A stretch of 64,000 bases of DNA from an uncultured Gemmatimonadaceae bacterium (GCA_963829055.1 CAWHHI010000016.1:640001-704000), one strand, 5' to 3'; shown: positions 2,994 to 64,000, counted from the first letter of the stretch. Notes: generated by a model not told the origin, from the sequence alone. Numbers and translations: made by a program.

Positions 2994-3956
2994 GTGAGCG
3001 TGACGCGCAGCCCGACGGGCTGGCGCTCTACGACAGTGTTCGTGCTGGGCGCGGTCGTGATCGCGATTATCGTGATCGCGCTGTCGCCCAGCGCCGCGTT
3101 CGCATGGACGCCGGGCACGCACGTTTTCCTGGGTGAGGCCGTACTGCGGTCCCTCCCACTCCTGCCCTCGGCCGTTGGTGACCTGCTGTCGGCGTTCCCG
3201 TACGACTTTCTGTACGGGTCGATCGCCGCGGACACGAGCATCGCGAAGAAGTACGCGGCAGCCGGCCGACATTGTCACGCCTGGAACATCGGACTCGAGA
3301 TCCGCGAGCAGGCGCGCGACGAACCGCTGCATGCGTTCGCGCTCGGGTATCTCGCCCATCTCGCCGCCGACGCGGTCGCGCACAACTACTTCGTCCCGCG
3401 CCAGCTCGCGACGACGTCGAGCACCTCAGCGCTCGGTCACAGCTACTGGGAAAGTCGCTTCGAGACGCATCTGGGAGAGCGCTTCGCGCGGCGCGCGCGC
3501 GAGCTGATTCTGCTCGACCACGCGCGCTCCGACGCGCACCTGGATCGCATTCTGAGCCCCACGATCTTCAGCACGCCGACCAATCGTCGGATCTTTCGCG
3601 GCATGGTCTACGTCACGGACACCGAGTCGTGGCAGCGCATCTTCCAGCTCATGTCGGAGAAGAGCCGGTGGGATCTTCCGGATGCGGACGTGGGCGCGTA
3701 CATGACGCGCTCGTTCGACTTCATCGTAGACTTCCTGCGCCGGATCGAGGGCTCGGAGCCGTACCTGCTCGACCCGTCCGGCGAAACACCGCTGCGGCTG
3801 GCGAAGCGCGTTAGGCGGGCTGCGCTGCGCCAGGGCGGCGAGGAGCTCGTGACGAGCGAAGCACAGCGGCACTTCGGCCTTCCTGAATCGAAATTGCGGT
3901 TCGCGGTGGAGCTCCCCTCCCCGCTCTATCCGCTGGCGCGCGCCGCCAGCAACTGA
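2994..3956 (+). CDS. Zinc-dependent phospholipase C family protein
   Basis: Signal-like N-terminus, mature W-T-P-G-T-H start, FLYGSIAAD, GYLAHLAADAVAH and HSYWE Zn-ligand motifs. Confidence 0.8.
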   Translation: MSVTRSPTGWRSTTVFVLGAVVIAIIVIALSPSAAFAWTPGTHVFLGEAVLRSLPLLPSAVGDLLSAFPYDFLYGSIAADTSIAKKYAAAGRHCHAWNIGLEIREQARDEPLHAFALGYLAHLAADAVAHNYFVPRQLATTSSTSALGHSYWESRFETHLGERFARRARELILLDHARSDAHLDRILSPTIFSTPTNRRIFRGMVYVTDTESWQRIFQLMSEKSRWDLPDADVGAYMTRSFDFIVDFLRRIEGSEPYLLDPSGETPLRLAKRVRRAALRQGGEELVTSEAQRHFGLPESKLRFAVELPSPLYPLARAASN

Positions 3957-5395
3957 TTCACCTTCTTCGGGTCCGCGCGGCCACCCGACTTCTTCATGAC
4001 CGCGCCGACGAACACACCGAGCAGCTTCTTCTCGCCACCCACGTAGCGCTGCCATTCGGCCGACTGGGCCGTGATGACTTCGTCGACCCACGTCGCGAGC
4101 TGCGTCTCGTCGCCGACCTGTGCCAACCCCTCGCGCTCCGCGATCTGCTCGGGCCGGTCACCGCTCTGCGTCATGAGAGCAAAAATGCGCTTTGCCGCTG
4201 TATGACTGACGGCGCCATCGCGTACCATGTCCAGCAACTTTGCCAGATCGGCGGGGCGCACCACGAACCGTTCGATGGTGAGACCGGCGTTCTTGAGCGC
4301 GGCCAACACCTCGCCCATGACCCAGTTCGCCGCGGCTTTCGAGTCGCCGTGCGCGCGGGCCACTGACTCGAAATACTCCGAAACGCGCGGGCTCGCCGTC
4401 AGCACGTCAACGTCGTACGCGCTCAGGCGATACTCGTCGGCGAAGCGTCGGCGGCGCGCGTCGGGCAGCTCCGGCAGGCGTCCGCGAATCCGCTCGATCC
4501 AGTCCTTCGTCAAGCGAAGTGGCGGCAGATCGGGATCGGGGAAGTACCGATAGTCGTGGCTTCCCTCCTTCGTCCTCGCCGGTCTGACGGTTCCGCGGTC
4601 GGCGTCCCAGAGCAGCGTCTGCTGCTCGACTCGCCCGTGCGCGTCGAGGATGGCGGCCTGGCGCGCGAACTCCGCGTCGAGCGCGCGCTCGACGCCCGAG
4701 AACGAGTTCATGTTCTTGACCTCCGTCTTCGTGCCCAGCTTCGTCGCGCCGCGTTCGCGGATGCTGATGTTCGCGTCCACGCGAAGGCTGCCCTCCTCCA
4801 TGTTCAAGTCGCTGACATCGACGTACTCGAGCAACTGCCGGAGCAGTCGAAGGTACGAACCCGCTTCGGCGCTCGACCGAATATCCGGCTCGCTCACGAT
4901 CTCGATGAGCGGAACTCCGGCGCGATTCAGGTCGATCGCGGTCGCCGCCGCGAATCGATCATGGATGGACTTGCCGGCGTCCTCCTCCATGTGCACGCGC
5001 GTGATGCCAATGCGGATGGCCGAGCCGTTCGCTTGCTCGCCGATGATGAGTGAGCCTTCGGTCGCGAGCGGCTTGTCGAACTGCGAGATCTGGTAGCCCT
5101 TGGGCAAGTCCGGATAGAAGTAGTTCTTGCGTGCGAAGATCGACTCCTCCTGGACCTTCGCACCTAACGCCAACGCCGCTCGGCTCGCCAGCTCGACGGC
5201 GGCCTCATTCAGGACCGGGAGACTGCCGGGCAGCGCGAGACACACGGGACAGGTGTTCCGATTCGGCGGCTCGCCAAACTGTGCGGAGCAGTTGCAGAAC
5301 AGCTTCGTCCGCGTGCGGAGCTGAACGTGGACCTCGAGCCCTACGACCATCTCGTACCGCGATGTAACGGCGGTCTGTGTCGTGGTGTCGGTCAC
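3926..5395 (-). CDS. gatB: Asp/Glu-tRNA amidotransferase subunit B
   Basis: VGLEVHVQL, RKNYFYPDLPKGYQISQ, HMEEDAGK and DYRYFPDPDL motifs. Confidence 0.98.
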   Translation of the reverse strand: MTDTTTQTAVTSRYEMVVGLEVHVQLRTRTKLFCNCSAQFGEPPNRNTCPVCLALPGSLPVLNEAAVELASRAALALGAKVQEESIFARKNYFYPDLPKGYQISQFDKPLATEGSLIIGEQANGSAIRIGITRVHMEEDAGKSIHDRFAAATAIDLNRAGVPLIEIVSEPDIRSSAEAGSYLRLLRQLLEYVDVSDLNMEEGSLRVDANISIRERGATKLGTKTEVKNMNSFSGVERALDAEFARQAAILDAHGRVEQQTLLWDADRGTVRPARTKEGSHDYRYFPDPDLPPLRLTKDWIERIRGRLPELPDARRRRFADEYRLSAYDVDVLTASPRVSEYFESVARAHGDSKAAANWVMGEVLAALKNAGLTIERFVVRPADLAKLLDMVRDGAVSHTAAKRIFALMTQSGDRPEQIAEREGLAQVGDETQLATWVDEVITAQSAEWQRYVGGEKKLLGVFVGAVMKKSGGRADPKKVNQLLAARASG

Positions 5396-6846
5396 TGGTG
5401 CGCGTCCTCGCCTAACGCCCTCTCGATGGCATACGCGACTCGGAACATTGTCAGCTCGTCGAAGTGCTTCGCCATGACCTGTCCGCCGATCGGCAGCCGG
5501 TCCACGCGCCCGACGGGCACGGACATGGCCGGAATGCCCGCCAGATTCGCCGTAACCGTGAAGATGTCGCTCAGATACATCTCGTACGGGTCGGACCGCG
5601 AACCGAGCGGGAATGCCGGCGTGGGGGCAGTCGGAGTAAACAGCACGTGCACGCCAGAATCGAAGACGCGTCGGAAATCCGTGGCGATGAGACCGCGGAC
5701 TTCCTGCGCTTTCTTGTAGTACGCGTCGTAGTAGCCCGCCGAGAGGACGTACGTGCCCAGCAGGATGCGGCGCGTGACTTCAGGACCGAAGCCGTTGGAG
5801 CGGGTCCGCTCGTACATCTCGCGCAGCGCAGGGGTCTGCGCGCGCGGGCCGTAGCGAACGCCATCGAAGCGAGCGAGGTTCGATGACGCTTCCGCCGGCG
5901 CGATGATGTAGTACGTGGGAATGGCGAGGTCGGTATGCGGCAACGAGACATCGCGGACCGTCGCGCCGAGGTGCCGCAACGAATCGAGCGTCGCATCGCA
6001 GCGTTCGCGCACGCGGGGATCCAGCGACTCCGGGAAGTACTCGCGCGGACGCCCGATCACCACCCCCGTTAGGCTCTCGGTGGCCAGCGAGCGGTAGTCA
6101 TCGACCGGCACGTCAGCGCTTGTCGAGTCGAACCGATCGCGTCCGGCGATGGCGGCAAGTCCGATCGCCGCATCGTCAACGGTGCGGCCGAACACCCCGA
6201 CCTGGTCGAGCGACGACGCGAATGCCACCAGCCCATACCGGCTCACGCGACCGTACGTCGGCTTGACACCAACGACGCCGCAGAACGCTGCCGGCTGCCG
6301 TACGGAGCCGCCCGTCTCGGAGCCGAGTGCGACGCGCACGATGCCGGACGCCACGCACGCCGCGGATCCGCCAGACGATCCACCCGGCACTCGCGTCGGG
6401 TCGAGCGGGTTCCGCGCCGGACCGTAGGCCGAGTTTTCGTTCGACGATCCCATCGCGAACTCGTCCATGTTCGTCTTCGCGACGACGATCGCGCCGGCCG
6501 ACCGCAGACGACTGACGACGGTCGCCTCGTACGGGCTGACATAGCCTTCGAGGACGCGCGACCCGCACGTCGTCGGCATGGTCAGCGTCGCGAGGTTGTC
6601 CTTCACTACTACTGGAACGCCAGCCAGTGGGCCCGGGCGATTCCCCTCCCGGTGCAGCTGGGCGACCTGTGTGGCGTCGCCTAACGCCGCCTCGCGGTCG
6701 TGCGCGAGGATCGCATTCAGCCCGTCGGCGCCCGCACGAACCTCGGTGGCGCGAGCGAACGCTTGCTCCACCGCGTCGGTGGGAGCAGCTGTCCCCTCTG
6801 CGTGTCGCCGCGCGAGCTCAGCGACGGAGAGCGCGGCGGCGCTCAT
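5392..6846 (-). CDS. gatA: Asp/Glu-tRNA amidotransferase subunit A
   Basis: KTNMDEFAMGSS, GGSSGGSAA, GSETGGSVRQP and SSNLARFDG motifs. Confidence 0.98.
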   Translation of the reverse strand: MSAAALSVAELARRHAEGTAAPTDAVEQAFARATEVRAGADGLNAILAHDREAALGDATQVAQLHREGNRPGPLAGVPVVVKDNLATLTMPTTCGSRVLEGYVSPYEATVVSRLRSAGAIVVAKTNMDEFAMGSSNENSAYGPARNPLDPTRVPGGSSGGSAACVASGIVRVALGSETGGSVRQPAAFCGVVGVKPTYGRVSRYGLVAFASSLDQVGVFGRTVDDAAIGLAAIAGRDRFDSTSADVPVDDYRSLATESLTGVVIGRPREYFPESLDPRVRERCDATLDSLRHLGATVRDVSLPHTDLAIPTYYIIAPAEASSNLARFDGVRYGPRAQTPALREMYERTRSNGFGPEVTRRILLGTYVLSAGYYDAYYKKAQEVRGLIATDFRRVFDSGVHVLFTPTAPTPAFPLGSRSDPYEMYLSDIFTVTANLAGIPAMSVPVGRVDRLPIGGQVMAKHFDELTMFRVAYAIERALGEDAHQ

Positions 6847-7157: not shown

Positions 7158-9430
7158 TAGTCCCATCCTCGCTCGAGGCCGGCGTATGCGACGACGAGGC
7201 GCTTGCGACCCACGGACTCGTCGTCGAAATCGACGGTGACCTTCGTGTCGCGCCCGACGCCCGACAGCTCGGATATCGTGCCGGAGCCGAAGCGACCGTG
7301 CCGCACGCGCTCGCCCTTGACGAACCGGGGTGAGTCCTGCGACGCCTCGACTTCGGTGTCAGCGCCGTACGACACCCGAGCCCCGGGCCGTCGCACGGCC
7401 GCGGACTGGTGCGGCATCACGCTGCGGCCCGTCGCCCGGAGCTTGAGCGTCGAACGCTCCTCGAGCATGCCGGGAGGAATCACCGCGAGGAAGCTCGACG
7501 GGATGGACGGCATCTGCTCGCCATTCCGGCGTCGCGACCGTGCGTGCGTGATGTAGAGCTTCTGCTCGGCGCGCGTGATCCCGACGTAGAACAGCCGCCG
7601 CTCCTCCTCGAGCATCGGAGGGTCGTCGAAGGCGCGTGCGAGCGGAAAGAGCCCGTCCTCCATGCCGGCGATGAACACGACCGGGAATTCCAGTCCCTTC
7701 GCGTTATGCATCGTCATCATCGTGACGGCATCCGCGTTCGGATCCAGTGCATCGACCCCCGTCACGAGAGTCGAGCGCTGCAGGAAATGGTCGAGCGGCG
7801 TGAGACCGACCTCTCCGCCGTCATCAGCGACGACTTCGGCCGCGCTGGCGACGAGCTCGCGAACGTTGTCGAGGCGGTCCTGCGCGTCGGGCTCGGCGCG
7901 GAGGTGATCGCCGTATCGAATGGCGTCGATGAGGTCGCGCAACACTTCGTCGACAGCCGACTCACGCGCCATCTCACGCATACGGCCCATCAAGGACGCG
8001 AATTCCGCCAGCGTCGCGCGAGCCGCGGGTCGAAGCGACGAAAGCAGATCCGGTCGTACTGACGCCGCGAGCAGCGGGATTCCCTCGGCGCGTGCGGCCG
8101 CGGCGAGCGCATCGATGCTCGTTTCGCCGACACCGCGCTTGGGCGCCGCAATGGCGCGGCGGAACGCCTCGTCGTCGTTAGGGTTCGCGATGAGCTTGAG
8201 GTAGCCCATGAGGTCGCGGATCTCGCGCCGGTCGTAGAAGCGCACCGCGCCAACGAGGCGATAGGCGAAGCCGCGTCGCCGGAGCGATTCCTCGAGCGAA
8301 CGACTCTGCGCGTTCGTCCTGTACAGCACCGCGAAATCGCGAAGCGTGAGACCACCGCCAAGCGCGTGACCCGGCTGACGGGCCGCGGGCGAGCCTCGGC
8401 GTGCGGCAATCTCCTCGACAATGAAATCGGCTTCATCGCGATCGTCGAGCGCGCCGACGACCGTCGCTCGTTCGCCGCCGGGCCGCGTGGAGCGGAGCGT
8501 CTTGCCACGCCGCTCGGTGTTCGCGCTGATGGCGACGTTCGCCAGTTCCAGGATCTGCGGCGTCGACCGGTAGTTTTCCTCGAGCCTAACGACTTTCGCG
8601 TTCGGAAAATCCTTCTCGAAGTCGAGGATGTTCCGGATGTCGGCGCCGCGCCAACCGTAAATGGACTGGTCATCGTCACCGACGACCATGACGTTCGCGT
8701 GCGCACCGCCGATCAACTTGATGAGGCGATACTGCGCGCGGTTCGTGTCCTGGTACTCGTCCACGAGAACGAAGCGAAAGCGATTGCTGTATTGCTCCTG
8801 CAGATGCGGGTTCTGCTCGAGAATGCGAACGGGGAGCACGAGCAGATCGTCGAACGTCACTGCATTCGCCTGACGCAGCGCTGCCTCGAGCTCCGCATAC
8901 ACCGGCGCCACGGCCTTGGTCCGAGGGTCCAGCGCGAGCGACTGATACTCCGTCGCGCTCACCAGCGCATTCTTCGCGTCAGAAATAGCGTCGAGGATCG
9001 AGCGCGGCGAATAGTCCTTCGCCGAAATCCGAAGCCGCTCCATGATGCGCTTGATGACGCCTGTCGCGTCATCCTCGTCGTAGATCGTGAAGCTCGGCGT
9101 TCGCCCGACGAGGTGCGCCGCCGAGCGCAGCATGCGCGCGCCGACGGAGTGGAAAGTGCCGCACCACATGCCCGCCGGTTCGGCACCAAGGAGGCGACCG
9201 ATCCGCTCCCGCATCTCGCCCGCGGCCTTGTTCGTGAACGTGACCGCGAGGATGTGCTTCGGGTCCACGCCGTGGTGTTCCACCAGATGCGCAATGCGCG
9301 TCGTGAGCACGCGCGTCTTCCCGGAGCCCGCGCCGGCAAGCACGAGCATCGCACCTTCGAAATGCAGCACTGCCTCGCGCTGCGCGGGATTGAGGCCGGC
9401 GAGCCAGTCTTGAGACAACGTCGTGGACAT
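7157..9430 (-). CDS. pcrA: UvrD/PcrA family ATP-dependent DNA helicase
   Basis: AGAGSGKT, TFTNKAA, VDEYQDTN, ENYRST, HNAKGLEF and EERRLFYVGITRA motifs, C-terminal Tudor-like domain; start placed at ATG 9430 (TGATG overlap). Confidence 0.95.
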   Translation of the reverse strand: MSTTLSQDWLAGLNPAQREAVLHFEGAMLVLAGAGSGKTRVLTTRIAHLVEHHGVDPKHILAVTFTNKAAGEMRERIGRLLGAEPAGMWCGTFHSVGARMLRSAAHLVGRTPSFTIYDEDDATGVIKRIMERLRISAKDYSPRSILDAISDAKNALVSATEYQSLALDPRTKAVAPVYAELEAALRQANAVTFDDLLVLPVRILEQNPHLQEQYSNRFRFVLVDEYQDTNRAQYRLIKLIGGAHANVMVVGDDDQSIYGWRGADIRNILDFEKDFPNAKVVRLEENYRSTPQILELANVAISANTERRGKTLRSTRPGGERATVVGALDDRDEADFIVEEIAARRGSPAARQPGHALGGGLTLRDFAVLYRTNAQSRSLEESLRRRGFAYRLVGAVRFYDRREIRDLMGYLKLIANPNDDEAFRRAIAAPKRGVGETSIDALAAAARAEGIPLLAASVRPDLLSSLRPAARATLAEFASLMGRMREMARESAVDEVLRDLIDAIRYGDHLRAEPDAQDRLDNVRELVASAAEVVADDGGEVGLTPLDHFLQRSTLVTGVDALDPNADAVTMMTMHNAKGLEFPVVFIAGMEDGLFPLARAFDDPPMLEEERRLFYVGITRAEQKLYITHARSRRRNGEQMPSIPSSFLAVIPPGMLEERSTLKLRATGRSVMPHQSAAVRRPGARVSYGADTEVEASQDSPRFVKGERVRHGRFGSGTISELSGVGRDTKVTVDFDDESVGRKRLVVAYAGLERGWD

Positions 9431-14435: not shown

Positions 14436-15640
14436 ACACGCTGGTCCTGTATGACGATCAGGTGGCGCGCGCGTTCGAGCCGTTCGCGCTCACGCGCCCG
14501 GCCTCGGAGCTGCGCGCGGCGACGGAGATCGTTAGGCGACGGTGGGAGATCGCGTTGCGGGCCGAGGCGAGCGGGTTCATCGGCGCCGGTCATCTGGCGG
14601 ACTTCGAGGAGCTCGATGCGCCGTCGATGATCGCCGGCGACATTCCCGCAGGGACCATCATCGCGCAGTCCCGCTGTGCGGTTGCACTCGGCGAGGCGGA
14701 CCCGGCGGCCGCTGTGTGGATGTGTCGTGGGCGCGTCGCGGCCGTACGGCTCACGCGAGCCGTCTCGTTCGGGCAACTGCGGGAGGGCCTAACGACGCTC
14801 GAGTCGCTCGTACCACCCCATGCGACCGCGAGCGACATCCATGGTTGGTGGATCGACGAGGTGTGGGATGTCATCCGGCATCTAGCCGAGATGCTCGCGT
14901 CCGACATCACGCAGCGGGTCGAGTCGCTGGATACGGTCAGCGCCGCGGAGTCGGGCGGTGCGGTCATCGGGGCATACCCCGCGCGCGTGGAGCGCGGCGC
15001 GTCGATCGAGCCGTACGTCGTCTTCGACGCGACGGCCGGACCGGTGCTCGTGCGTCGGGGCGCTACGATCTCGCCGTTCTCGCGGCTCGTCGGACCGTGC
15101 TACGTGGGAGAAGACAGCATGGTCGCCGGCGGTCGCGTTGGGAACAGCGCGATCGGCGAGCAGTGCCGCGTCCATGGGGAGGTCAGCACGACGATCTTCC
15201 TCGGTCACGCGAACAAGTCGCACGACGGATTTGTCGGCCACTCGTACCTCGGACGGTGGGTCAACCTCGGCGCGAGCACGGTGACGAGCAATCTGAAAAA
15301 CACGTACGGGTCCGTGGGATTGTGGACCCCACGCGGCATACGCGACACAGGCATGCAGTTCCTCGGGACGCTTTTCGGCGATCACGCGAAGACCGCGATC
15401 GGGACGCGTCTCACGACCGGAGGCGTGATCGGTGCTGGCGCGAACGTCTTCGCTACCGGAATGACATCGAAGGTCGTCGCGCCGTTCTCGTGGGGCGGCA
15501 GCGCCGATGCACCGGCGTGGGACGTGGATAGATTTATCCGGGTCGCCGAACGCGTGATGACCCGGCGACACGTCACGCTCAGTGAGCGTGCGCGTCGGTG
15601 GCTGGCCGCGGCGCATGCCGCACGATGGCAGGTGGAATGA
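14432..15640 (+). CDS. Putative sugar nucleotidyltransferase with hexapeptide repeats (GlmU-like)
   Basis: PFALTRP N-terminus; NKSHDGFVGHSYLGRWVNLGA...SNLKNTYG left-handed beta-helix region. Confidence 0.8.
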   Translation: MNTLVLYDDQVARAFEPFALTRPASELRAATEIVRRRWEIALRAEASGFIGAGHLADFEELDAPSMIAGDIPAGTIIAQSRCAVALGEADPAAAVWMCRGRVAAVRLTRAVSFGQLREGLTTLESLVPPHATASDIHGWWIDEVWDVIRHLAEMLASDITQRVESLDTVSAAESGGAVIGAYPARVERGASIEPYVVFDATAGPVLVRRGATISPFSRLVGPCYVGEDSMVAGGRVGNSAIGEQCRVHGEVSTTIFLGHANKSHDGFVGHSYLGRWVNLGASTVTSNLKNTYGSVGLWTPRGIRDTGMQFLGTLFGDHAKTAIGTRLTTGGVIGAGANVFATGMTSKVVAPFSWGGSADAPAWDVDRFIRVAERVMTRRHVTLSERARRWLAAAHAARWQVE

Positions 15641-16449
15641 AGGTTTGGGTGTTGGGGTCTGGAAGTCGCGGCAACGCGACCGTGATCGACAATGGCAGTA
15701 CTCGCGTGCTCGTGGACGCGGGCTTCTCCGCGCGCGAGCTGAAACGTCGTTTCGCGGCAGCGGACATCGCGCCGGAGTCCATCGAAGCGCTGATCGTCAC
15801 GCATGAGCACGGCGATCACGTGTGCGGAGCAGTCCGCGCGGCGCGCCGCTGGAAGTGGACTGTCCACGCCACGGCGGGCACTGTGGCGGGCGCGCCGGAT
15901 CTCAACACCGCTGACGTTCGCACGTTCGAAGCGGGTGCGACGCTCACGTTCGGATCGATGACGGTGCTCACCGTGCCGACGTCGCACGACGCGACGGATC
16001 CGGTTGCGGTCGTGGCGACGGACACGTCGACGGGCGCGCGGGCCGCGGTTGTCATGGACCTGGGGCGCGAGTCGCCGCATCTCCGGAACGTGCTACGCGA
16101 CGTCGAGGTGCTGGTGCTCGAGTCGAATCACGACGAAGCGATGCTCGCGCACGGGCCCTACCCCATCTCCGTGCAGCGACGCATTGCCGGAGTCACCGGG
16201 CATCTCAGCAATCGCGAGGCGGGCGCGATCGCGCGCGCGTGCGCTCACTCGGGGCTGCAGCATCTCGTGCTGGCGCACCTGAGCGAGCAGTGCAACACGC
16301 CGGATCACGCGCTGGCGACGGCGTCGGCGGCGCTCGCGCGCTCTCGCTTCCGCGGCCATGTGACGGCGGCGGCGCAGGATTCGGTGCGCGGCGCGTTCGT
16401 CGCGTCGCGTCCGGGCGGCCGCGCGGTGCAGCTCGCGTTAGGCTTCTAG
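15637..16449 (+). CDS. MBL-fold metallo-hydrolase (YycJ/WalJ-like)
   Basis: [29 protein letters not shown] and LAHLS motifs. Confidence 0.9.
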
Positions 16450-16454
16450 CGAGC

Positions 16455-16560: not shown

Positions 16561-16562
16561 AC

Positions 16563-16597: not shown

Positions 16598-16617
16598 CCT
16601 ACAGTGGAGTGCTGAGC

Positions 16618-18282
<1,665 letters not shown>

Positions 18283-19754: not shown

Positions 19755-20530
19755 GTGCCGGCGGCCACCAGCTCGTGCGCGATGCGCAGGCCGTTCAGCG
19801 TCAGGTAGGGTTCGACGAGGTCGAACTCCTTGCAGAACGGCTGAAAGACCGACGCCAGTCCGCCGGTGGCGACCACCAGCGGCACGGCACCCCCTGGCCA
19901 CTCGGCCTTGATACGCCTAACGATCCCGTCGATCGCCTCGGCGCTGCCGAATACGACACCGGACCGGATGCATTCCTCGGTGCGCCGGCCAATGACGCGC
20001 GCGGGCGGTTCGATTTCCGTCGCGGGGAGCTTCGACGTGCGGCGAAAGAGCGTCTCGGCCGACGTGCGCACGCCGGGGGCGATCACGCCGCCGATGAACA
20101 CGCCGTCCGCCGTGATGCAGTCGTATGTCGTGGCGGTGCCGAGGTCCACGACGATCGTATCGCGGCGATAGAGGCGGCTGGCCGCGAGCGTGTTGATGAT
20201 CCGGTCAGCGCCGACGGTGAGCGGCTCCTCGACATCCAGGCGGATTGGCAGCGGTGACCGCGCGTCGATGATCAACGGCTTCGCGCCGACTGCATGTTCG
20301 CAGGCCTCGGCGAGCGGCGCCGTGAATGCCGGCACCACCGACCCGATGGCCGCCCGATCGATCGCCGATCGATCGATGTTGTCCGCCGCCAGGAGCGCGC
20401 GAATGAGCAGCGAGATCTCGTCCGGCGTGCGTGCCACGTCGGTGGTGACGCGCCAGTGTCCGCAGAGCTTCTCCCCGTCGTAGAGACCGACCGTCGTTTC
20501 GGTGTTTCCGACATCGAACACGAGGATCAT
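19751..20530 (-). CDS. coaX: Type III pantothenate kinase
   Basis: FDVGNTET, VGADR, VDLGTATT, GGVIAPG and VATGG motifs. Confidence 0.95.
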   Translation of the reverse strand: MILVFDVGNTETTVGLYDGEKLCGHWRVTTDVARTPDEISLLIRALLAADNIDRSAIDRAAIGSVVPAFTAPLAEACEHAVGAKPLIIDARSPLPIRLDVEEPLTVGADRIINTLAASRLYRRDTIVVDLGTATTYDCITADGVFIGGVIAPGVRTSAETLFRRTSKLPATEIEPPARVIGRRTEECIRSGVVFGSAEAIDGIVRRIKAEWPGGAVPLVVATGGLASVFQPFCKEFDLVEPYLTLNGLRIAHELVAAGT

Positions 20531-21279
20531 GCGATCGCTCCCGCGAGAGTGAGTGAACCATCGCGAAATGCTCGCAGCCCCGTCGACGTGTCCACGAGCA
20601 GTTCGCCTGACGACGTAATGCCGCGCACTTCGCCTGGTACCGGATCGATGCACACGCGCCCCGCGGCGAAATCGCGGGTCGCGAATTGTTCGAGCTCGCT
20701 GGCGGTGAGCGGGCCGCGGGCTGCCGCGGCTGCGCGCACGGCCGGAACGAGCTCCGCGAGCACATCGACGCGCTGAACGCCCGGCCGCAAGCCGGCTGCA
20801 TTCGCCACGCCGGCAGGTTGGCGCACGTTGACCCCGATGCCGATGGCAACCCAGTCGATGCGACCGGACCTCCAGCGCGCCTCGACGAGAATACCAGCAA
20901 CCTTGCCTTCACCGACGAAAATGTCGTTCGGCCACTTGAGTCGTATCGGCGACGCAGCGTAGCGGTCGAGCGCGCGCGCGGCACGCAGGCCGAGGCGGAG
21001 CGACAGCACGTCGACGGCACTCGGGTCGTTAGGCCGCTCGATGACCGTCATCCAGATGCCCTGCCCTGCCTCCGATGCCCACCGTCTGCCGTTGCGTCCG
21101 CGCCCCGACGTCTGACGGTCCGTGAGCACGACGGTACCAGCCGCGGCATCGAGCGTCGCCAGGCTGTGCGCGTCATCCATCGTCGACGCCGTCGAGTCGA
21201 AAACAACAACACGTGGAACGTCGAGGAGCCGCGCGAGTGTCGCGGCGTCGCGCCCGTCGTAACTCGCGATCTCAACCAC
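20527..21279 (-). CDS. birA: Biotin--[acetyl-CoA-carboxylase] ligase (no HTH)
   Basis: STMD, QTSGRGRNGRRW, LKWPND and KVAGILVE motifs. Confidence 0.94.
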   Translation of the reverse strand: MVEIASYDGRDAATLARLLDVPRVVVFDSTASTMDDAHSLATLDAAAGTVVLTDRQTSGRGRNGRRWASEAGQGIWMTVIERPNDPSAVDVLSLRLGLRAARALDRYAASPIRLKWPNDIFVGEGKVAGILVEARWRSGRIDWVAIGIGVNVRQPAGVANAAGLRPGVQRVDVLAELVPAVRAAAAARGPLTASELEQFATRDFAAGRVCIDPVPGEVRGITSSGELLVDTSTGLRAFRDGSLTLAGAIA

Positions 21280-46094: not shown

Positions 46095-46164
46095 CCGTCC
46101 CTCCACGCGTTAGGCGCTGCGATCGCGCAGCACCACGCGTCGCGGATAGTCGGGGCCGCATCGA

Positions 46165-49804: not shown

Positions 49805-49982
49805 TGCCGCCTCGCTGCGAGGTATGCGCTCATCGGGCGCCGGCGTCGGCGGCTGTCCAATCGAATCGGAACGACACACCCAACTTCGGTGCGGAGAATG
49901 GAGTGAGTCAAGCTCGCCCGCAGCTCACTTTCGAATGCTCGAGCCGGCCTACCAAGGAACGTCAGCGAACGTCGACCGGCGC

Positions 49983-50430
49983 CTAACGCGGCACGGTCCC
50001 GCGCGCCACGAAGAGAACATCGCCGCGCTTCGCCGCCGTGATCGCCGCCGCCGCGACGCAGGCATACTGGAACTCCTCAGCCGTGCCCATCTCGCGTTCG
50101 GTCGCCTCGAACCCGACGTCGCGTAGAAACACACGCACCCATTCGAGTAACTCTGCCCGGTCGAAGACGCCCTGCATCAGCGACAGGTCGATCATGAGCC
50201 CGCCGTCGCAGACCGCCGTCTCCGCGGCGTTGTGGTCGCCACCACGCACGGCCGGCAGCAGCCGGTGCGAATGGGCAAAGTCAAACCCTACTGAAAGCCG
50301 CGCACGATGGGCCGTCGACCTTAATGCCGCTCCGACCGGCTGTCGAAAGCAACGCGCCTCGGCGCCGCACGACGCCCAATGTCGCAGCGCCTCGTAGGCG
50401 CACCCGATCCTTAGGCGATCGCCTTCATCG
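49983..50430 (-). pseudogene. Remnant of an FAD-binding oxidoreductase joined to unrelated sequence
   Basis: AVRGGDHNAAETAVCDGGLMIDLSLMQGV resembles the FAD_binding_4 RGGGH...IDLS segment; the rest of the domain is missing. Confidence 0.6.
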
Positions 50431-51263: not shown

Positions 51264-51338
51264 GCGCGTGAGTGATCAACGTGCCGCACGCCAGACCGTT
51301 CGTCGTCGGATGTTGCCTAACGTGTCGTCGGCCAGCCG

Positions 51339-52207: not shown

Positions 52208-52456
52208 GTCGACGACTCCTTGAGGCGACGAGGGTACGGGTACGAACACACCCTGCGCGCGGGGCTTCGCGGAGTCAACCCCCTCCCTGCCGCTGATCCG
52301 CTCAAAACACCAAGCCGCCAACGAAAGCGGGTCTTCGGTTCTGTCGGCCTCTTCGTCGACCCGCGGTGCCGCCCAGGTCGGTTCCAAGTCCCACATGTCT
52401 ACATGGTCGTCACTCAGCGCGTTAGGCGCGCAGCTCGCCACGTCGGGCGCCTCTCG

Positions 52457-55169
52457 CTACGCATCGCGGATCGTCGAGGCTGGATCGATCCGTGTGGCGC
52501 GGCGGGCCGGCACCCACGATGCCAGACCGGCAACGACCGCCACCAGCGCGGCCACGGTTACGAACGTCGCAGGATCGGTCGGCGACACCTCGAACAACAG
52601 ATCCGAAAGGAGTCGAGTGAGCGCCAACGCCGCGACGCTCCCGATCGCTACGGCGATGACCGCGAGAACTCAGCGCTTCGCGTACCACGACGCTCGTCAC
52701 CTGCGCGGCCCGCGCGCCGAGCGCGATACGAATGCCGAACTCGCGACGGCGCTGGACGACGCCGTACGAGAGCACGCCGTACATCCCGACCATCCCGAGC
52801 AGCAATGCCGCAACGGCGAACGCCCCGGAGAGGACGGTCGCGAATCGCCGCCGGGCGATACTCTCCCGGTAGAGCTGGTGAACCGTCGCCACCCGATGGA
52901 CCGGGAGCTCGGGGTCGAGCTGCCTAACGGCGCCGCGAAGGGCAGACCCGAGCGACGTGGTGTCGCCGGTGCCATTGGTGCGCACGACCAGCGTGAGCCA
53001 GGTCATCCAGTTCCAGCGTTTCTGTGCGAACGGCATGTAGAACGCGGGCGCCGCCGCTTCGTCGGCGGCCGTGGTCCGGGCGTCGCCAACGACGCCGACG
53101 ATCTGGAGCCACGGACCCGACGCCCCCACCAGGCTGATGCGAGCTCCCACGGGATCGCGATCAGGCCAATGCAGCCGCGCGAGCGATTCATTCACGATGA
53201 CCACGGGCGGCGCGCCGGCGCGATCAGCCGCCGTGAACGCGCGCCCGCGACGCAGCGGAATGCCTAACACGCGAAAGTAATCCCCGGCAACGACGCGCAG
53301 CGGCTGGGGGTCTTCACGCCCGCTGGCGTTACGAGATGGGCGGCCCTCGACGGCGAACGAGAACGTCGTTTCTCCCGTCGCGCCGAGACTCTCCGTGGTG
53401 CCGGCGACGCCACTGACGTTCGGCAAATCGCTCACCCGCTCCAGTAGCCGATCGTAGAACTGCACATGACGCACGGTGCTGTCGTATCGTGCGTGCGGGA
53501 GATCCAGCGATGCGGTCACGAGGCCGTCGGTGCGGTACCCATAGTCGATCCGCCCGAGTCGCTGAGCCGAGCGAAGCAACAGCCCAGCTCCCGTCAGGAG
53601 CACGAGCGAGATCGCGAGCTCACCGACGAGCAGTAGCGAACGCGTGGGTCCAGTGCGGCCACTGCCAGCGCGGTCGCCGGACGCGCGAAGCGCGAGCTGG
53701 AGCGACTGCCCGCGGAAGCGATCAGCAGCCAGGAGACGCACAGCCGGAGCGAGTCCGAACAACAATCCGGCAACGATCGTCGACACCAAGGCGTACGCGA
53801 GCACGCTGCCGTCCATGTGTACGGCCGTGAGGCGCGGGATATCGCTCGGTGCCAGCGCGAGCAGCGCGCGTGTGAGGACTGCCGCCGCGCCTACGCCGAG
53901 CGCACCACCGAGCAGCGCGACGACGAGGCTCTCGGTGAGCAATTGCCGCAAGAGCCGGCCGCGCGCGGCGCCTAACGCGCCACGCACCGCCATCTCGCGC
54001 CGCCGGCTCACAGCGCGCGCCAGCAGCAGGTTCGCGATGTTCGCGCAGGCAACGACGAGCAGGAGCGTCGCGCCCGCCATGAGCACGAGCAGCAGCGGTC
54101 GGACACGGACAACGAGGTCATCGCCCATGGCGACCACGTTCGTGCCGTATCCGGTCATGTACTGCGGATATTCGCGCGCGAGCCCACCCGTGATCGACCG
54201 CATTTCCGCGCGCGCCGATGTGATCGTCGCTCCCGGCGCGAGCCGTGCGACCACCAGCCAGTTGTGACTGCGACGCTCGTTCGAATCGATCTGGTCGTCC
54301 GTGACCGGTCGCCAGATATCGACGCCGGCAGCCGGAAACTCGAACTCCTCGGGCATGATGCCAATAACGGAGTGCGGGACACCGTTGAACATCAAGCGGC
54401 GTCCGATCACGCCGCGATCGAGGCCAAAGCGCCGCTGCCAGAACTGGTGACTCAGCACGACGATCCGTCCGTCGCCGGTCGCGTCATCAGGCACGAACGA
54501 GCGACCTAACGCGGCGCGCGCGCCGAGCGTCTGCATGAGCGACGGCGTGGCTTCGACGACGGTGATCTGCGTCGGGTCACCATCGCCAACGTAGCTCACC
54601 CCGTGTGGTGCGCCATGCGCACCCATGACGGAGAACGACTTCGCAGCGGAGCGCCAGCTCGCGTAGTTCCCTATCGACGCCACGTTGTGATCATCGCCAC
54701 GGGGCGACACCTCCCAGATGCGGACGAGCCGCGCGGGATCAGCATACGGCAGCGGGCGGAGCAGGACGCCGCGCACGATGCTGAAGATGGCCGTGCTCGC
54801 GCCGATGCCGAGCGCCAGCGTCAGCACGATGGCGGCGGTGAACCCTGGGGCTCGGCGCAATGACCGCACCGCGAATCGAACGTCCTTGCGCACCGAGTCC
54901 AGCAACTCGGACCACTCGTGTCGACGCTCCTGCTCGGCGCCGATGTCTTCGCAAAGCCGGCGCGCGCGCTCCATGTCGCCGAACTCCGTTCGGGCTCGTG
55001 CGCGAGCCTCGTCAGGCGAAACGCCGTTGGCCACGTGACGCGCCGCGATCATGTCGATGTGGAATTCGAGCTCGTCGGCAACGTCGGCCCGTACGTCAGC
55101 ACCGCGAAGTCGCAGATATCGTCGCCACGCCGGTGCGCTGCTCTCGCGGTCGCGCGGTTGATTCGTCAT
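52457..55169 (-). CDS. Duplicated MacB/FtsX-type ABC permease (ADOP-like), frameshift near 52670
   Basis: ELEFHIDM prefix, LALGIGASTAIFS, ACANIANLLLAR, REMAVRGALGA and REFGIRIALGA motifs; true end IDPASTIRDA-stop in another frame. Confidence 0.9.
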
Positions 55170-56556: not shown

Positions 56557-57635
56557 TGACGCTCACCAACGGCGCGCTGCCCACGACGCAGTCGCGGGTT
56601 CGCGACACGGCGGGCCGAGCACGTCGCCTAACGCGACTCGGTCAGCCGGCGCCGCTGTGCGACTGAAGCTTACTCGAGCGTCAGTGCATCGTCGTCCACG
56701 GGAAGCACGTCATGTCGACGGACAGCAGTCGTCTCGACGTCGATCACATGTCTCCGAACGACGACTCGTCCGGGTCACCGTACGGACGCTCACCGTAGCA
56801 CCAGTCGTCTTCACGGCCGCCGCTCACGGTCGTCGAGCGCGGCAGCTCACGCGCGAGCTGTCTCGGGACCTGGCGATCATCGCGCCCGAGCGCATCGGTG
56901 GTGACGCGATCGTGAGGCGATCCGTTCGAGTTTCTGATCGGGGCGAGCCGAAGCACTGCAGTCTCGGTGCGAAGTAGCGGTAGGTCATGCGTCAACCTCC
57001 AACGGTCGGCGTGGACCGAACCGTACCGGGCCGAGATCAAGGCGGCGTATCAGGAATGTCACGTCGACGCCACGCTGTCGGCTGCTGGCGAGTCCGTGAT
57101 GCCAGCGCACCTAACGACGCTAACAACATCCTTCGCCTTGATCCTAACGCGGCGGGTGCCACGCTCAGCGCGTGAACGACTGGAACCTGACCGCCGATCT
57201 GCCGGTGGTGGAGCGAACCGCGGGGTCGAGCCGGTGACGTGGGTTACAGATGCGTCGCTGACTGCTGGCGGCCACCGAAACTAGACGTGCGCCAGGCTGA
57301 GCCGCGTGGGGTACCCGAGCCGCCTAACGATTCCTCGTCTGCAGCAGCCTCGAGCATGTGGCCCGGGCGTCATCGATATGTATCGCGACGCGAGACGCTC
57401 CCAGCCACGGCGCTGAGGGCTGTCCCCAACGTCCCATTGTTGACCGCGCGATTGGCGCGAAATTGCGCATGTTCTTCGTAGATCGGAGCGACGGTGACGC
57501 GGCGCGTGGTCAGCGCTTTCCGGCCGTCGCGACGTCTCTGCATCCCGACCTCCGAGATCGTCTTCGGGGAAGCCGCTCGCGCGGGTGCGAGCGTGCGCGT
57601 CACCGCCCGAAGCAAGCTCACCTCAGGAGCATACG

Positions 57636-59190: not shown

Positions 59191-59441
59191 GTGCCTTGGG
59201 TCGGCGGGACCGCGCGCCGTGTAAACCCGCGCTCGGCGGTGGAGCGTTAGGCACGACCGCGGACGAGCCGCGGCCACACACCCTCGCGGCGCGTCATCCT
59301 CGCCTGTCTCCTACTCACCGCTCCAGGCGCACTCGCGCAAACGCCAGCGCCTAACGCCGATCCGTCGTACGTTCGGATCGCACGGTGGCGCGAGTACGCG
59401 CGACATCCCGGTCGACATCGCTCCGATTTACCGTCGCCTCG

Positions 59442-60959: not shown

Positions 60960-61216
60960 GGTCGTATGCGAACGGGTGTCGGGTGATGCAGCAGGCCGAA
61001 CACACGATAGAGGAAAATCGTTTGGAAGTCGACGTCGGTGGGGTGGTGATGCCCCTCGCGTCTACTCGAGTCGCAGCGTGCCTGGACAAACGGTCGACCG
61101 GGCGTGCGAGGCGGCTTGAGCCGAATTCGTCGGACTTCGCGCGTTTCCGAATGGCGACGCGCGGCCACCCCGGCTCGTCGGGCGCCATATTCCTCACTCG
61201 TCATCAGGTGTCGCAC

Positions 61217-61765
61217 ATGACCCGCCCAGCCCGCGCCATCCTCGTGTCGCTCGCCGCCCTAGCCTGCGGGGGCGGGCCTTTCGGCCCGGGGACACCCGCC
61301 GCGACCTACGAGGTCATGGTCACCCCGCGCGACCCCAAGGCGGCTACGTCTCGGTTCGTCGGCACGAACGCGGAGCACGTCGGTGCTCGTATTCCCATCG
61401 ACTCGAGGCAGACGATATGGAGGGCAAAACTGAGCATCCGGCTCATGAACAAGACTGGCGCGCTGGTGGGTGTCATGGACCTCGTCTTCCCCGACACCAC
61501 GCTCCGATATGGCCAGATCGAGCTCGAGCGCGGGCGCCTCGGTCCGTTCCCCGATAGGCTCGTGGCAACGGGGTACGTCGTCCGCCCGGATGGCACGGGC
61601 TTGTACCAGATCACGTCCGGGCAGCTGCAGCTGGCGAAGGGGGCTGAGGGCGTCCTGCAGGGCAGCTTCACCGCCGAGCTCAGTCCCGTCGTACCGGCCG
61701 ACGCAACCGCCGAGGTGGTCGCCGACGCGGCCGGACGATTCGTCGCCCGGCGCCTAACGTGGTGA
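61217..61765 (+). CDS. Hypothetical lipoprotein
   Basis: MTRPARAILVSLAALAC lipobox after an AGGTG RBS; beta-rich body. Confidence 0.6.
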   Translation: MTRPARAILVSLAALACGGGPFGPGTPAATYEVMVTPRDPKAATSRFVGTNAEHVGARIPIDSRQTIWRAKLSIRLMNKTGALVGVMDLVFPDTTLRYGQIELERGRLGPFPDRLVATGYVVRPDGTGLYQITSGQLQLAKGAEGVLQGSFTAELSPVVPADATAEVVADAAGRFVARRLTW

Positions 61766-61839: not shown

Positions 61840-62145
61840 AAAGTAGTCGAGCAAGGGTACGTCTCCCGCTGCCCCTGGGCGCAGGATCGGCACGCACAAG
61901 GTGCGGGCGGAGGCCCGGCCGGCGGGGACCGCCGGCTGGGCGGCACGTTAGGCACCCTGATCCAGATGACGATCGATCCCGGAGCCCTTCCGCGGCCGAT
62001 GCTGCAGCAGGTCATAGCGACCGACGCGGCGATGGCGCTGGGCGGAGACATGCCGATGGCGATGTCGACTCCGGTCGAACCGGGCGAATCGCTCGTGGTG
62101 GCCGTGGCGCGCCTGCGGTTGCAGTTTGTGTGGCAGTCGCGGTGA
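61840..62145 (+). pseudogene. Possible remnant of a SIMPL (DUF541) protein C-terminus
   Basis: LGGTLGTLIQMT...PRPM...AMA...TPVEPGESLVV resembles SIMPL C-termini; upstream part is degenerate. Confidence 0.35.
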
Positions 62146-62160: not shown

Positions 62161-62610
62161 TTGGCTCCCTCCGGCAACGCCTCGATAGGCTCCGTTAGGC
62201 AACCCAGCTTCTGGAGGCGACGCGTGCTCTCGCTCCTGCTCGGCCTGGTCCAGCTTGGCCACACGATTGCGCGGACGGCACGCAATCCGGAATTCCGCGC
62301 GCTGCTGATCTTGTACGGCGTGCTGCTGGCGATCGGCACGGGATTCTACTCCCGCGTCGAAGGGTGGAGCGTTCTCGACGCGATGTACTTCTGTGTGCTG
62401 ACGCTGGCGACGGTCGGCTTTGGAGACCTCACGCCGCGCACACCGCTCGGCCGGGCGTTCACCATCGTGTACGTGCTCATTGGTACGGGCGTCTTCGTCG
62501 GCGTGGCTGCCGAGTTCGCCATCACGATCCTTCGTGGCCGCGTTGCACCCGCCGTAACCAAAGGAGGGCGACGTGCGGGCGATAGCCTCGAGGGCCGCCT
62601 CGACGAATAG
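62161..62610 (+). CDS. Two-TM potassium channel family protein
   Basis: EGWSVLDAMYF and TLATVGFGD selectivity filter between two TM segments; start uncertain. Confidence 0.88.
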   Translation: MAPSGNASIGSVRQPSFWRRRVLSLLLGLVQLGHTIARTARNPEFRALLILYGVLLAIGTGFYSRVEGWSVLDAMYFCVLTLATVGFGDLTPRTPLGRAFTIVYVLIGTGVFVGVAAEFAITILRGRVAPAVTKGGRRAGDSLEGRLDE

Positions 62611-62653
62611 GTGCGAGGCGACGCCACCGCGTCCCGTTATCATCGCCTGAACG

Positions 62654-64000
62654 TTACGCACCGTCACCCTCGGCCACCCTGTTGACCGCGCCGCGCCGCG
62701 ACGCCGTTCGGCGCCAGCCACGACGCGCGAGCCGAAGCCGTGCGCCCAGACGCGTGGTCGACTCCCGGGTGTGATCCTCCTCGGCCGTGCGCTGCCACGC
62801 GCGCGCGAGACCCTTCCAGTCGAGCAGGCCAATCATTCGCGTCGGGTCATCGCGATCGACGACAGGAAGGCGACTGATTCGCCTCGCCAGCATGAGGCCG
62901 ACAGCTTCCTCGAGCAACGCGTCGGCGTGGGCAACTATCGCCGGTGCGCTGCCCGCGTCGAGTACACTCAGCGTGTCGCCATCCTCACGGTCGGCCGAGG
63001 CGATGAGGTCACGGCGCGTGATGATCCCCAGCAGTGCACCAGCAGCGTCGACAATCGGCCAGGCCTGATGCGGGGCCAGCACCGGGTCGTCGTTCGCCAG
63101 GCGCCGGAGCAGCCCGTCGGCAGGCATGCTCGCCGGAATGGTCGGCACGTCGCGCTCCATCACGTCCGCCACTCGAAAGCGCGACAGCGGGCTCACAGCG
63201 TATTCACGGGCAATGTGGTAGCCCCGGCGCGCAACCTTCTCCGTCAGTATCGAGCGCCGCATCACCAGCACGGTGAAGCCGTGCGCCGCGACGCACGCGA
63301 GGAAGAGCGCCGGAACGACGGATAGGTCGTGTGTAAGCTCGAGCAGGAACACCGCGGCGGTGAGCGGCGACCGCATCGTCCCGGCGAGCATCGCCGCCAT
63401 GCCAACGGCCGCCCAGAGACTCGTGTCGCCAACCGGGATGACCGCGCTTCCGATCGCGCCTAACGCGCCACCCATGATCAAGAGCGGCGCGAGCACGCCA
63501 CCCGACGTCCCCGAACCGAGCGCGACGGCCCAGATGACCGTCTTCACGGCCATCAGTCGGACGGCTGCGAGCCCCGCGAGCTGTCCCGCGAGCAGCGCGC
63601 CAATCGTATCGTAGCCGACTCCGAGCGCCTTCGGTGCAATCAGGCCGCCGATCCCCACCGCGAAGCCACCGATTGCCGGCCACCACATTGGATCGAGCGG
63701 CAGTTTGCCGAAAGCGTCCTCGCAGGCGTAGACGAGCAACGTCGCCAGCGCGGATACACCTCCGGCACACAGGCCCAGCGCAAACGCAGCGGCCAGCACC
63801 TGCCACGAGGGCGACAGATGCGGCGCCACGGTGAACAGCGGACCGCCGCCGAGGAGCGGCACACGACACGCGCCCGCAACGATCGCCGCAACGGCCACTG
63901 GGATGAAACTCCGGGGCTTCCACTCGAAGAGTAAAAGCTCGACCGCGAGCAACACCGCGGCGATAGGTGTCGCGAAGATTGCGGCCATGCCTGCCGCCGC
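62654..64000 (-). CDS. ClC chloride channel protein with CBS domains, 5' end outside the window
   Basis: AAIFATP, GTSGGVLAP, MRSPLT and SILTEK motifs plus two CBS domains. Confidence 0.93.
   Translation of the reverse strand, partial: AAAGMAAIFATPIAAVLLAVELLLFEWKPRSFIPVAVAAIVAGACRVPLLGGGPLFTVAPHLSPSWQVLAAAFALGLCAGGVSALATLLVYACEDAFGKLPLDPMWWPAIGGFAVGIGGLIAPKALGVGYDTIGALLAGQLAGLAAVRLMAVKTVIWAVALGSGTSGGVLAPLLIMGGALGAIGSAVIPVGDTSLWAAVGMAAMLAGTMRSPLTAAVFLLELTHDLSVVPALFLACVAAHGFTVLVMRRSILTEKVARRGYHIAREYAVSPLSRFRVADVMERDVPTIPASMPADGLLRRLANDDPVLAPHQAWPIVDAAGALLGIITRRDLIASADREDGDTLSVLDAGSAPAIVAHADALLEEAVGLMLARRISRLPVVDRDDPTRMIGLLDWKGLARAWQRTAEEDHTRESTTRLGARLRLARRGWRRTASRRGAVNRVAEGDGA

Follow-up and report, generated by a model that had tools for sequence, protein, structure and literature searches.

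An exact, non-palindromic octamer spread through some Gemmatimonadaceae genomes: a possible uptake-type self-tag spelled like the integron core

The DNA considered here is a window of 64,000 nucleotides (G000:C16:640001-704000; GCA_963829055.1 CAWHHI010000016.1) from the genome of an uncultured Gemmatimonadaceae bacterium (G000), in which a single octamer, GCCTAACG, is repeated in and between the genes. The genes gatA, pcrA, coaX, pyrC and mutL, whose names were confirmed with NCBIfam, all hold copies, as claimed in an earlier note made from the window alone. The window contains 35 copies, 20 on the plus strand and 15 on the minus strand, compared to a mean of 0.84 and a maximum of 4 in dinucleotide-preserving shuffles; the coordinates and strands that the note gave for all 35 are exact, and its count of about 52 occurrences of the CCTAAC core agrees with the 52 CCTAAC/GTTAGG hexamers found (Table 1).

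The excess extends to the whole of G000, an assembly of 7.78 Mb in 20 contigs (66.7% GC, 85.9% complete) on which rough gene calls place 5,530 genes covering 71% of the sequence, which seems to be an undercount because the assembly itself appears to be frameshifted. GCCTAACG occurs 5,004 times in this assembly (2,457 on the plus and 2,547 on the minus strand) and is present on all 20 contigs, so that the feared restriction to one contig can be set aside. It is the top octamer of G000 by the ratio of observed to expected counts, at about 17 times the level predicted from base composition. The excess also persists against a codon-aware null, a shuffle preserving each protein and the codon usage of each gene: called genes hold 3,064 copies, whereas 20 rounds of synonymous shuffling within genes leave 142 on average (about 22-fold), and between genes 1,652 copies are found where about 44 are expected from Markov models of order 1-2 (about 37-fold). 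A ranking of octamers by the maximal-order Markov model is uninformative for this word because its own sub-words are enriched too.

Independent sequence supports the word. The window from 39001 to 46000 is covered by contigs from 4 public runs of 4 studies, and the four octamers that it contains are free of differences among the 40 of 163 differences listed; record 2 of X1 and record 25 of X9 span the copy at 39270, and record 6 of X1 spans that at 44381, all three being near-identical to the window with differences elsewhere only. At least 18 runs, which come from 15 or more studies on rhizosphere, soil and sediment, contain half or more of the words of the stretch. Several genes of the assembly look truncated or frame-shifted, among them the groEL reading frame at window 16205-17758 (which matches its model only from position 164), a pilin with a nonsense C-terminal half (L257:2580-3095) and a pair of AddAB-like genes in pieces (G000 C15:11673-16010), which suggests assembly indel errors. 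The three longest stretches free of the word (G000 C6:5440-55037, C6:591808-623330 and C11:1-46789; 50, 32 and 47 kb) are each situated at the end of a contig, and the two on C6 are GC-richer (0.70 and 0.73). They encode housekeeping proteins such as FtsK, GreA, DAHP synthase, Rpe, glutamine synthetase and IlvD, several as partial matches, and they may be chimeric joins to the DNA of another organism or large foreign islands.

The repeated unit is the octamer and nothing more. The 12 positions that flank it on each side display only the three-base periodicity of codons, and all 24 one-off variants are much rarer than the exact word; flat flanks and rare variants together indicate an exact octamer rather than part of a longer repeat or mobile element. 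A dispersed repeat of the repetitive extragenic palindromic (REP) or miniature inverted-repeat transposable element (MITE) type was rejected on the same flat flank profile and because orthologues align gap-free through the sites. GCCTAACG differs from its reverse complement. Its density is similar in the four open phases of the coding strand, at stop codons and in intergenic DNA, with 1,196 copies read as xCG-TTA-GGC, 858 as xxG-CCT-AAC-G, 572 as xGC-CTA-ACG and 438 as xxC-GTT-AGG-C. As a result, 1,196 of the 2,669 TTA codons (44.8%) and 14.6% of the CTA codons lie inside the word, in line with the suggestion of the earlier note that it is a genome-wide cis signal that overrides codon preference. 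The remaining two phases contain TAA or TAG, and these serve as real stops: GCC-TAA-CG ends 162 of the 686 genes that stop at TAA, and CGT-TAG-GC ends 148 of the 1,450 that stop at TAG. Word density is highest at stop codons and over the 40 nt that follow, with no difference between the two orientations, which we read as the word probably settling where constraint is lowest.

Among the one-off variants, which include ACCTAACG, GCCTAACA and GCTTAACG, only a few are enriched under a conservative codon shuffle, namely ACCTAACG (11.7-fold) and GCCTAACA (10.6-fold); lesser enrichment was found for GCATAACG (4.3-fold), CCCTAACG (2.6-fold) and GCCTGACG (2.4-fold). The strongest enrichment concerns the outer positions, and transitions at the inner C positions leave only 13-24 copies genome-wide. 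This pattern suggests a reader that would require the inner six bases and tolerate changes at the two ends, that is, a graded binding specificity; the apparent depletion of inner variants relative to the synonymous shuffle is in part artefactual, since the shuffle spreads the word's own rare codons.

The orientation of the word was compared with that of the locally G-rich strand. Chi and the FtsK-orienting polar sequences (KOPS) are polar, and the earlier note had used the presence of GCCTAACG on both strands as an argument against a signal of this kind; that argument is unsound, as Chi and KOPS are also balanced genome-wide. The comparison with the G-rich strand nevertheless separates them, because no replication polarity of GCCTAACG was found in G000: 51.3% of the copies lie on the G-rich strand (vs 48.7%), 50.3% between genes and 51.5% where GC skew is strong, and neighboring copies share a strand in 52% of cases. 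On the contig that contains the window, the peak of cumulative GC skew and a flip in gene orientation are located near 550 kb of C16, and a XerC/D-like recombinase gene is encoded at C16:540795-541592, some 90-100 kb before the window; the region from about 540795 to 550000 is probably the replication terminus region.

Copies also avoid each other. Compared to an exponential expectation, gaps between copies are reduced to 0.23 at 8-100 bp and 0.49 at 100-200 bp and raised to 1.24 at 400-1,600 bp, while 50 non-palindromic octamers of similar abundance gave minima of 0.79 and 0.84 and medians of 1.13 and 1.08 in the two shorter classes. The same avoidance was seen in samples of a congener (G001: 0.15 and 0.39) and of a member of another genus (G014: 0.22 and 0.55), and in weaker form in a Verrucomicrobia genome (0.63 and 0.83; 400 kb, 154 gaps). 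Self-avoidance below 200 bp points to a force that acts per DNA segment, as a mutation or repair bias at single sites would not predict it.

Table 1. Copies of GCCTAACG in the 64,000-nucleotide window, with positions counted from its first nucleotide and gene limits in brackets
Position	Strand	Context	Observation
3809..3816	- (reads CGTTAGGC on +)	called gene (2994-3956)	
5410..5417	+	gatA (5392-6846; three copies)	
6067..6074	-	gatA	
6679..6686	+	gatA	
8584..8591	+	pcrA (7157-9541)	
14530..14537	-	glmU-like gene	
14787..14794	+	glmU-like gene	
16436..16443	-	groEL reading frame	
19915..19922	+	coaX (19751-20653)	
21027..21034	-	outside called genes	
25623..25630	-	mutL (24997-26832)	
28845..28852	-	gene (26772-29180)	
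30730..30737	-	VWA-domain gene	
31702..31709	-	gene (30883-31884)	
32480..32487	+	gene (31881-32981)	
39270..39277	+	outside called genes	intact in independent contigs
40760..40767	+	pyrC (39866-41230)	kept in G001, G002; one-off in G005, G004
43369..43376	+		species-specific; other letters in four congeners
44381..44388	-		kept in 5/5 congeners compared
46108..46115	-	directly downstream of a gene end	
48119..48126	+	outside called genes	
48853..48860	+	Ser/Thr kinase gene	
49981..49988	+	outside called genes	
51315..51322	+	outside called genes	
52420..52427	-	junction of ECF sigma and ADOP permease genes	
52922..52929	+	ADOP permease gene	species-specific
53970..53977	+	ADOP permease gene	kept in G001, G002
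56626..56633	+	outside called genes	
57322..57329	+	outside called genes	
59245..59252	-	outside called genes	
59349..59356	+	outside called genes	
61752..61759	+	end of gene (60947-61765)	
61946..61953	-	outside called genes	
62193..62200	-	K+ channel-like gene	
63458..63465	+	ClC channel gene	

Alignment of orthologues, proposed in the earlier note as a check, showed that the sites are conserved above control and are gained by substitutions that are partly synonymous. Two segments of the window could be aligned with five congeners, at identities of about 70-79%, and there kept, lineage-specific and one-off sites are all represented. Between G000 and its congener G001 (378 kb at 77.9% identity), 219 and 225 sites were found, of which 131 are shared, with 16.6% of the phase-matched control 8-mers identical; between G000 and G014, from another genus (184 kb at 71.3% identity), the sites number 85 and 186 with 28 shared, and 7.9% of the controls are identical. 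Sites are thus kept 3-4 times better than background. Those not shared differ at 1-7 of the 8 positions, and their mean of about 2.5 differences seems to exceed plain background divergence and would fit directional change. One third of them differ in a purely synonymous manner; for example, Ala-Leu-Gly is written GCG-CTC-GGC in one genome and GCG-TTA-GGC in the other on six occasions. No clear protein cost of the gains was detected, 66% of the non-shared sites being protein-altering compared to 60% of the non-identical control 8-mers. The gap-free alignment at the sites indicates that the word spreads by point substitution.

One segment of about 6.4 kb (window 46085-52459) is present in G000 and absent at this place from G001, G002 and G005; it bears the word six times and encodes a Ser/Thr kinase and an extracytoplasmic function (ECF) sigma factor, and the same gene-end sequence is repeated at both of its borders. 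Site-specific insertion at the word was considered for this segment, as a copy lies near both ends, but it was rejected because the congeners lack a clean empty site with a single copy.

The distribution of the word is patchy at the family level. It was analyzed in a first set of G000 plus 30 relatives (31 genomes) and in a second set of 300 genomes, sampled evenly across the phylum, to which G000 was added; the tallies include the unpublished genomes G013, G083, G203 and G122, all of them motif-poor, and no claim depends on these. In the first set, all 7 genomes of the window's genus carry 2,501-5,112 copies each and G014 carries 6,360 in 5.1 Mb, three genomes are intermediate (G010 with 605, G030 with 345 and G018 with 194 copies) and the other 20 have at most 65. 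In the second set, 13 genomes reach the threshold of at least 400 copies, ten of them in the window's own family (genera g1, g30, g33, g37, g39, g40, g42 and g43) and three in one genus of a sister family (g70), and none was found in the other nine families (f4-f12). Even within a single genus, g40, two genomes are rich (G240 with 3,896 copies and G297 with 4,141) and one is poor (G293 with 66).

Beyond the phylum, a scan across prokaryotes with one genome per species, searching for two convergent copies 400-420 bp apart, returned at least 123 loci, and among the 80 matches listed nearly all belong to Gemmatimonadaceae or to metagenome-assembled genomes of Chthoniobacterales, Spartobacteria or Verrucomicrobiae. 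The named Gemmatimonadaceae loci are 70-81% identical to G000, which assigns G000 to this family. Five genomes of Chthoniobacterales/Verrucomicrobiae carry 2,254-4,562 copies each in 3.2-4.5 Mb, and in conserved genes of Verrucomicrobia the word stands at positions where G000 lacks it, which indicates independent accumulation in the two phyla. No sign of recent transfer between G000 and Verrucomicrobia was found in a sample of the motif-rich Verrucomicrobia genome G031 that covered 400 kb, or about one tenth of it, where 116 hits gave a median identity of 39% and a best of 67% with no outlier.

A further property of GCCTAACG is its relationship with integrons. The match to the integron core site GTTRRRY that the earlier note had pointed out is borne out, since GCCTAAC fits RYYYAAC and is the R'' core of attC sites in relatives. 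In two motif-poor genomes, G021 and G019, the few copies of the word belong to integron cassette arrays, where they share a strand and are spaced by 500-650 bp, and among 38 attC sites detected without the octamer (from RYYYAAC...GTTRRRY cores and arm pairing) GCCTAACG constitutes R'' and the base after it in 33, with TGTTAGGC at R' in 31 of 38. The chance that a random octamer contains RYYYAAC is about 0.4%. These arrays (loci L001-L005, on contigs C95, C80 and C43 of G021 and C3 of G019) are large and have highly uniform attC sites of about 90-103 bp; one of them comprises at least 23 cassettes in 20 kb, and an integrase fragment is found at G021:C80:6537-7148.

In G000 itself, no attC array was found by strict cores, by examination of the region beside intI, by profile or by arm-pairing scans. 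In the latter, where true attC sites mostly score 14-16, attC-like pairs were not above a reversed-genome control (2 vs 8 at a score of at least 13 and 10 vs 10 at a score of at least 11), and an nhmmer profile built from 85 R''-to-R' stretches on both strands of the relatives' arrays gave no hit in G000 at E of 0.01 or lower. The 5,004 copies of G000 are not attC sites, as they possess no second arm, hairpin or conserved flank. G000 does encode an IntI integrase (265.7 bits; C20:208011-208985), beside which no cassette array was detected. A copy of the word lies at C20:209104, about 120 bp upstream of the intI start, which may be chance, the local density being about one per kb. An N-terminal IntI remnant (C4:2862-3170) was considered as a stand-alone reader and discarded, as it looks like a pseudogene fragment.

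How might such a word be maintained? The DNA uptake sequences (DUS) of Neisseriaceae are read by the minor pilin ComP, the uptake signal sequences (USS) are those of Pasteurellaceae and are evenly spaced, and both occur, like the highly iterated palindrome 1 (HIP1), at a density of about one per kb. The reading that we favor, with a probability of roughly 0.4, is that GCCTAACG is a self-tag of this uptake or HIP1-like kind and that DNA bearing it is preferentially taken up or integrated. Under this hypothesis, a sequence-specific factor would read the double-stranded octamer in either orientation. The word would arise by ordinary point substitutions and then be kept in place by a force acting per stretch of DNA, at about one copy per 0.8-1.5 kb and not per site, so that a second copy within about 200 bp would add nothing. 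Fragments with the word would be preferentially imported or integrated during natural transformation, and word-bearing alleles would displace word-less ones by molecular drive, with or without selection for self-DNA. The likeness to DUS, USS and HIP1 proposed in the earlier note holds for density, strand balance, conservation and spacing; as for the reader, none of the candidate genes tested tracks the word. Regarding the machinery, ComEC and a ComEA-like HHH_3 protein are encoded in 31/31 genomes (the ComEA-like match in G000 is weak, 35 bits), and G000 possesses a type IV pilus cluster with two pilA genes, minor pilins, pilMNOPQ and a secretin.

Several observations weigh against the self-tag. 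This uptake hardware is equally present in motif-poor relatives and therefore does not explain the patchiness, and the genes named in the earlier note as possible companions (ComEA, methyltransferases and IntI, with type IV pilins in the place of ComP) do not follow the word. IntI is discarded as the driver because TIGR02249 is found in 22/31 genomes, rich and poor alike, and the IntI-like protein of G000 as a reader because its closest homologues are encoded in G003, G001 and the motif-poor G293. The three candidates tested among pilin and pilus-operon proteins do not track the word either: homologues of a 340-amino-acid pilin-like protein occur in each of the 5 genomes tested; a 388-amino-acid pilus-operon protein that was promising on 5 genomes proved widespread in motif-poor ones and was not detected in any of the five Verrucomicrobia genomes; and a pilin-like open reading frame on C16 matches through its N-terminal helix only and appears to be frame-shifted. 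An Eco57I/MmeI-type methylase accompanied by a SNF2 helicase was rejected as reader as well, since it is an order-wide core gene that was not found in the five Verrucomicrobia genomes. Moreover, we know of no competence in either lineage, and known uptake sequences differ between families, so that receptors of independent origin would not be expected to share one octamer across two phyla. Inverted pairs that could act as terminators are not evident (of the pairs spaced by up to 150 bp, 29 are convergent, 27 divergent and 81 direct), and no local compensation for lost sites was found (13.2% vs 12.3% within 100 bp); a single case of apparent compensation at window 52922/52947 did not generalise across the species comparison. 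Finally, a chromosome-binding protein would account equally well for the even spacing and the conservation.

The methylases of these genomes deserve a description of their own. In 31/31 genomes the Eco57I/MmeI-type methylase is found with the SNF2 helicase, and its identity follows phylogeny from 85% down to 38%, so that it is unusually stable for a defence-type gene. At L259:3140-8595 (G001:C159) the 1,060-amino-acid methylase (Type IIG-like) is followed by a 758-amino-acid SNF2 helicase (DrmD/DpdE-like), and in G000 (C8:73551-76755) the methylase gene is split into five frame-shifted pieces. In a scan of some methylase families in the 7 genomes of the genus, PF01555 was found in 0, PF00145 in 0 and PF02384 in 1. 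A D12-class methylase is present in g1 and was not found in G014 or G035, and it was dropped as a candidate.

A chromosome-binding protein is the alternative that survives best, although we consider it unlikely. GCCTAACG would be the binding site of an abundant, monomeric nucleoid-associated protein with about one site per kb, and selection would keep the sites evenly spread. Self-avoidance below 200 bp together with a deficit of long gaps, conservation at 3-4 times the control, the lack of polarity and an outer-position tolerance like that of a binding motif are all consistent with this proposal, and a structural role has been put forward for the quasi-periodic HIP1 (PMC13756078). However, there is no candidate protein, and the sites concentrate where constraint is lowest (at stop codons and within the following 40 nt) and not at fixed landmarks. 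Within the family, most genera do without the word although their core biology is the same, and its identity with the integron core would be a coincidence.

In a second alternative, which appears quite improbable, the word would be a self-marker for a recombination or repair machine or for a nuclease, following the logic of Chi: DNA bearing the word would be spared or recombined, and DNA without it would be degraded. Its regular spacing suits a translocating enzyme that has to meet the word within a few kb, the three long stretches without the word are compositionally odd, and G000 encodes an AddAB-like gene pair. This proposal is opposed by the absence of orientation bias (51.3% overall and 50.3% between genes) and by an excess far above that of Chi, which is much smaller than that of GCCTAACG. 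RecC was found in 0/31 genomes, and AddAB-like domains do not follow the word: they are present in G000 and in the motif-poor G008 and G016 and are not found in the motif-rich G001 and G014 (each 92% complete). RecBCD and AddAB were thus rejected as the reader.

A similarly small chance is given to a reader derived from, or tuned to, the integron core. Such a reader would serve to import attC-bearing DNA, namely cassettes of the soil gene pool, and the tags on the chromosome would be a by-product, a currency shared by two unrelated soil phyla, Gemmatimonadota and Verrucomicrobiota (Chthoniobacterales). The spelling common to the two phyla and its identity with the attC core suggest such a link between reader and cassettes, speculative as it is. 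Very unlikely is the proposal that the octamers are double-stranded R-box half-sites for IntI or a relative, which would act as cassette landing pads or decoys. The octamer is R'' plus one base in most attC sites of the relatives, G000 encodes IntI, and insertion of cassettes at genomic attG sites is reported to be possible (bioRxiv 10.1101/2022.09.11.507474). On the other hand, attG requires only GWT according to the same report, IntI occurs regardless of word load with homologues that include one in a motif-poor genome, attC-like sites in G000 do not exceed the control, and no conserved flank marks cassettes.

The least probable alternative is a methylation-coupled repair ratchet, which is reportedly Elhai's model for HIP1 and in which a methylase would mark CCTAAC and mismatch repair favoring the methylated strand would create and restore the word: one-off variants cluster at the first and last positions, as the deviations of HIP1 are said to do in the abstract of Elhai 2015, recognition sites of the MmeI family or of BREX type are built like this word, and an Eco57I/MmeI-type methylase with a SNF2 helicase is present, but that methylase is vertically inherited in rich and poor genomes alike and was not found in the five Verrucomicrobia genomes, the three families PF01555, PF00145 and PF02384 are (nearly) missing in the 7 genomes of the motif-rich genus, and a repair bias at the level of the site predicts neither self-avoidance below 200 bp nor gains from 3-5 substitutions away.

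The relevance of a self-tag, if that is what GCCTAACG is, would lie in where it is found. To our knowledge, self-tags are known experimentally only from Neisseriaceae, Pasteurellaceae and, arguably, cyanobacteria (HIP1); a genomic signature of this type is now present in abundant and poorly cultured soil lineages, and it stands out by one octamer in two phyla, by the spelling of the integron core and by self-avoidance below 200 bp. The statement of the earlier note that no description exists for this lineage agrees with the full-text searches, supplements aside, in which none was found; the papers listed for the octamer itself deal with unrelated topics. No literature on Gemmatimonad uptake sequences was found, papers on Gemmatimonad attC sites or integrons offered none that was relevant by title and abstract, and the matches listed for Chthoniobacter or Udaeobacter held nothing relevant on uptake or over-represented octamers. 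If the word is an uptake tag, it would suggest that natural transformation is a major route of gene flow in soil, tied to cassette capture; such a link is plausible because natural transformation feeds cassettes to the integron of Vibrio cholerae (PMC12614218). With a cassette-tuned reader, if true, an uptake-type signal would for the first time be common to more than one phylum, and uptake specificity would for the first time be functionally connected with integrons. In practical terms, the word provides a sharp signature by which genomes can be binned and foreign or chimeric DNA detected, and its presence on donor DNA could possibly aid genetics in these groups. The contrast within g40 (G240 and G297 vs G293) is the sharpest for finding an accompanying gene and makes the search for a reader tractable, and the graded genera g30, g33, g37, g39, g42, g43 and g70 offer contrasts between genera.

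Compared to known systems, GCCTAACG resembles Chi and KOPS in being an over-represented octamer of the core genome, theirs being read by DNA-processing machines; unlike them, it is not oriented with replication, with 51.3% of copies on the G-rich strand, and RecC was found in none of the 31 genomes. It is identical letter for letter to the R''/R' core of integron attC sites (RYYYAAC/GTTRRRY), whereas the copies of G000 occur equally in both orientations, inside housekeeping genes and independently of the presence of an integrase. With HIP1 (GCGATCGC) there are several parallels: both are octamers found about once per kb that are conserved inside and outside coding DNA and are spaced quasi-periodically, that spread by substitutions and not by insertions, and that have a polyphyletic and graded distribution, with deviations concentrated at the end bases. 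HIP1 is described as conserved, quasi-periodic, spread by substitution and transformation-enhancing, and is proposed as an uptake signal (PMC13756078). HIP1 differs in that it is palindromic and accompanied by the methylases DmtC and DmtA, whereas three main methylase families are (nearly) missing in the motif-rich genus and the one conserved methylase does not track GCCTAACG. Unlike DUS and USS, which have 9-12 bp, GCCTAACG has 8 bp; it also lacks the inverted-pair terminators of the Neisseria DUS, and among the three candidates tested there is no ComP-like receptor confined to the word-bearing lineages. As in DUS and USS, it is a short non-palindromic word with thousands of copies at about one per kb, equal on both strands, placed in genes and spacers against codon preference, spread by substitution, evenly spaced, patchy at the family level and graded in its variant positions, in genomes that encode a type IV pilus, ComEC and ComEA; what sets it apart from them is that it is identical in two phyla and identical to the attC core.

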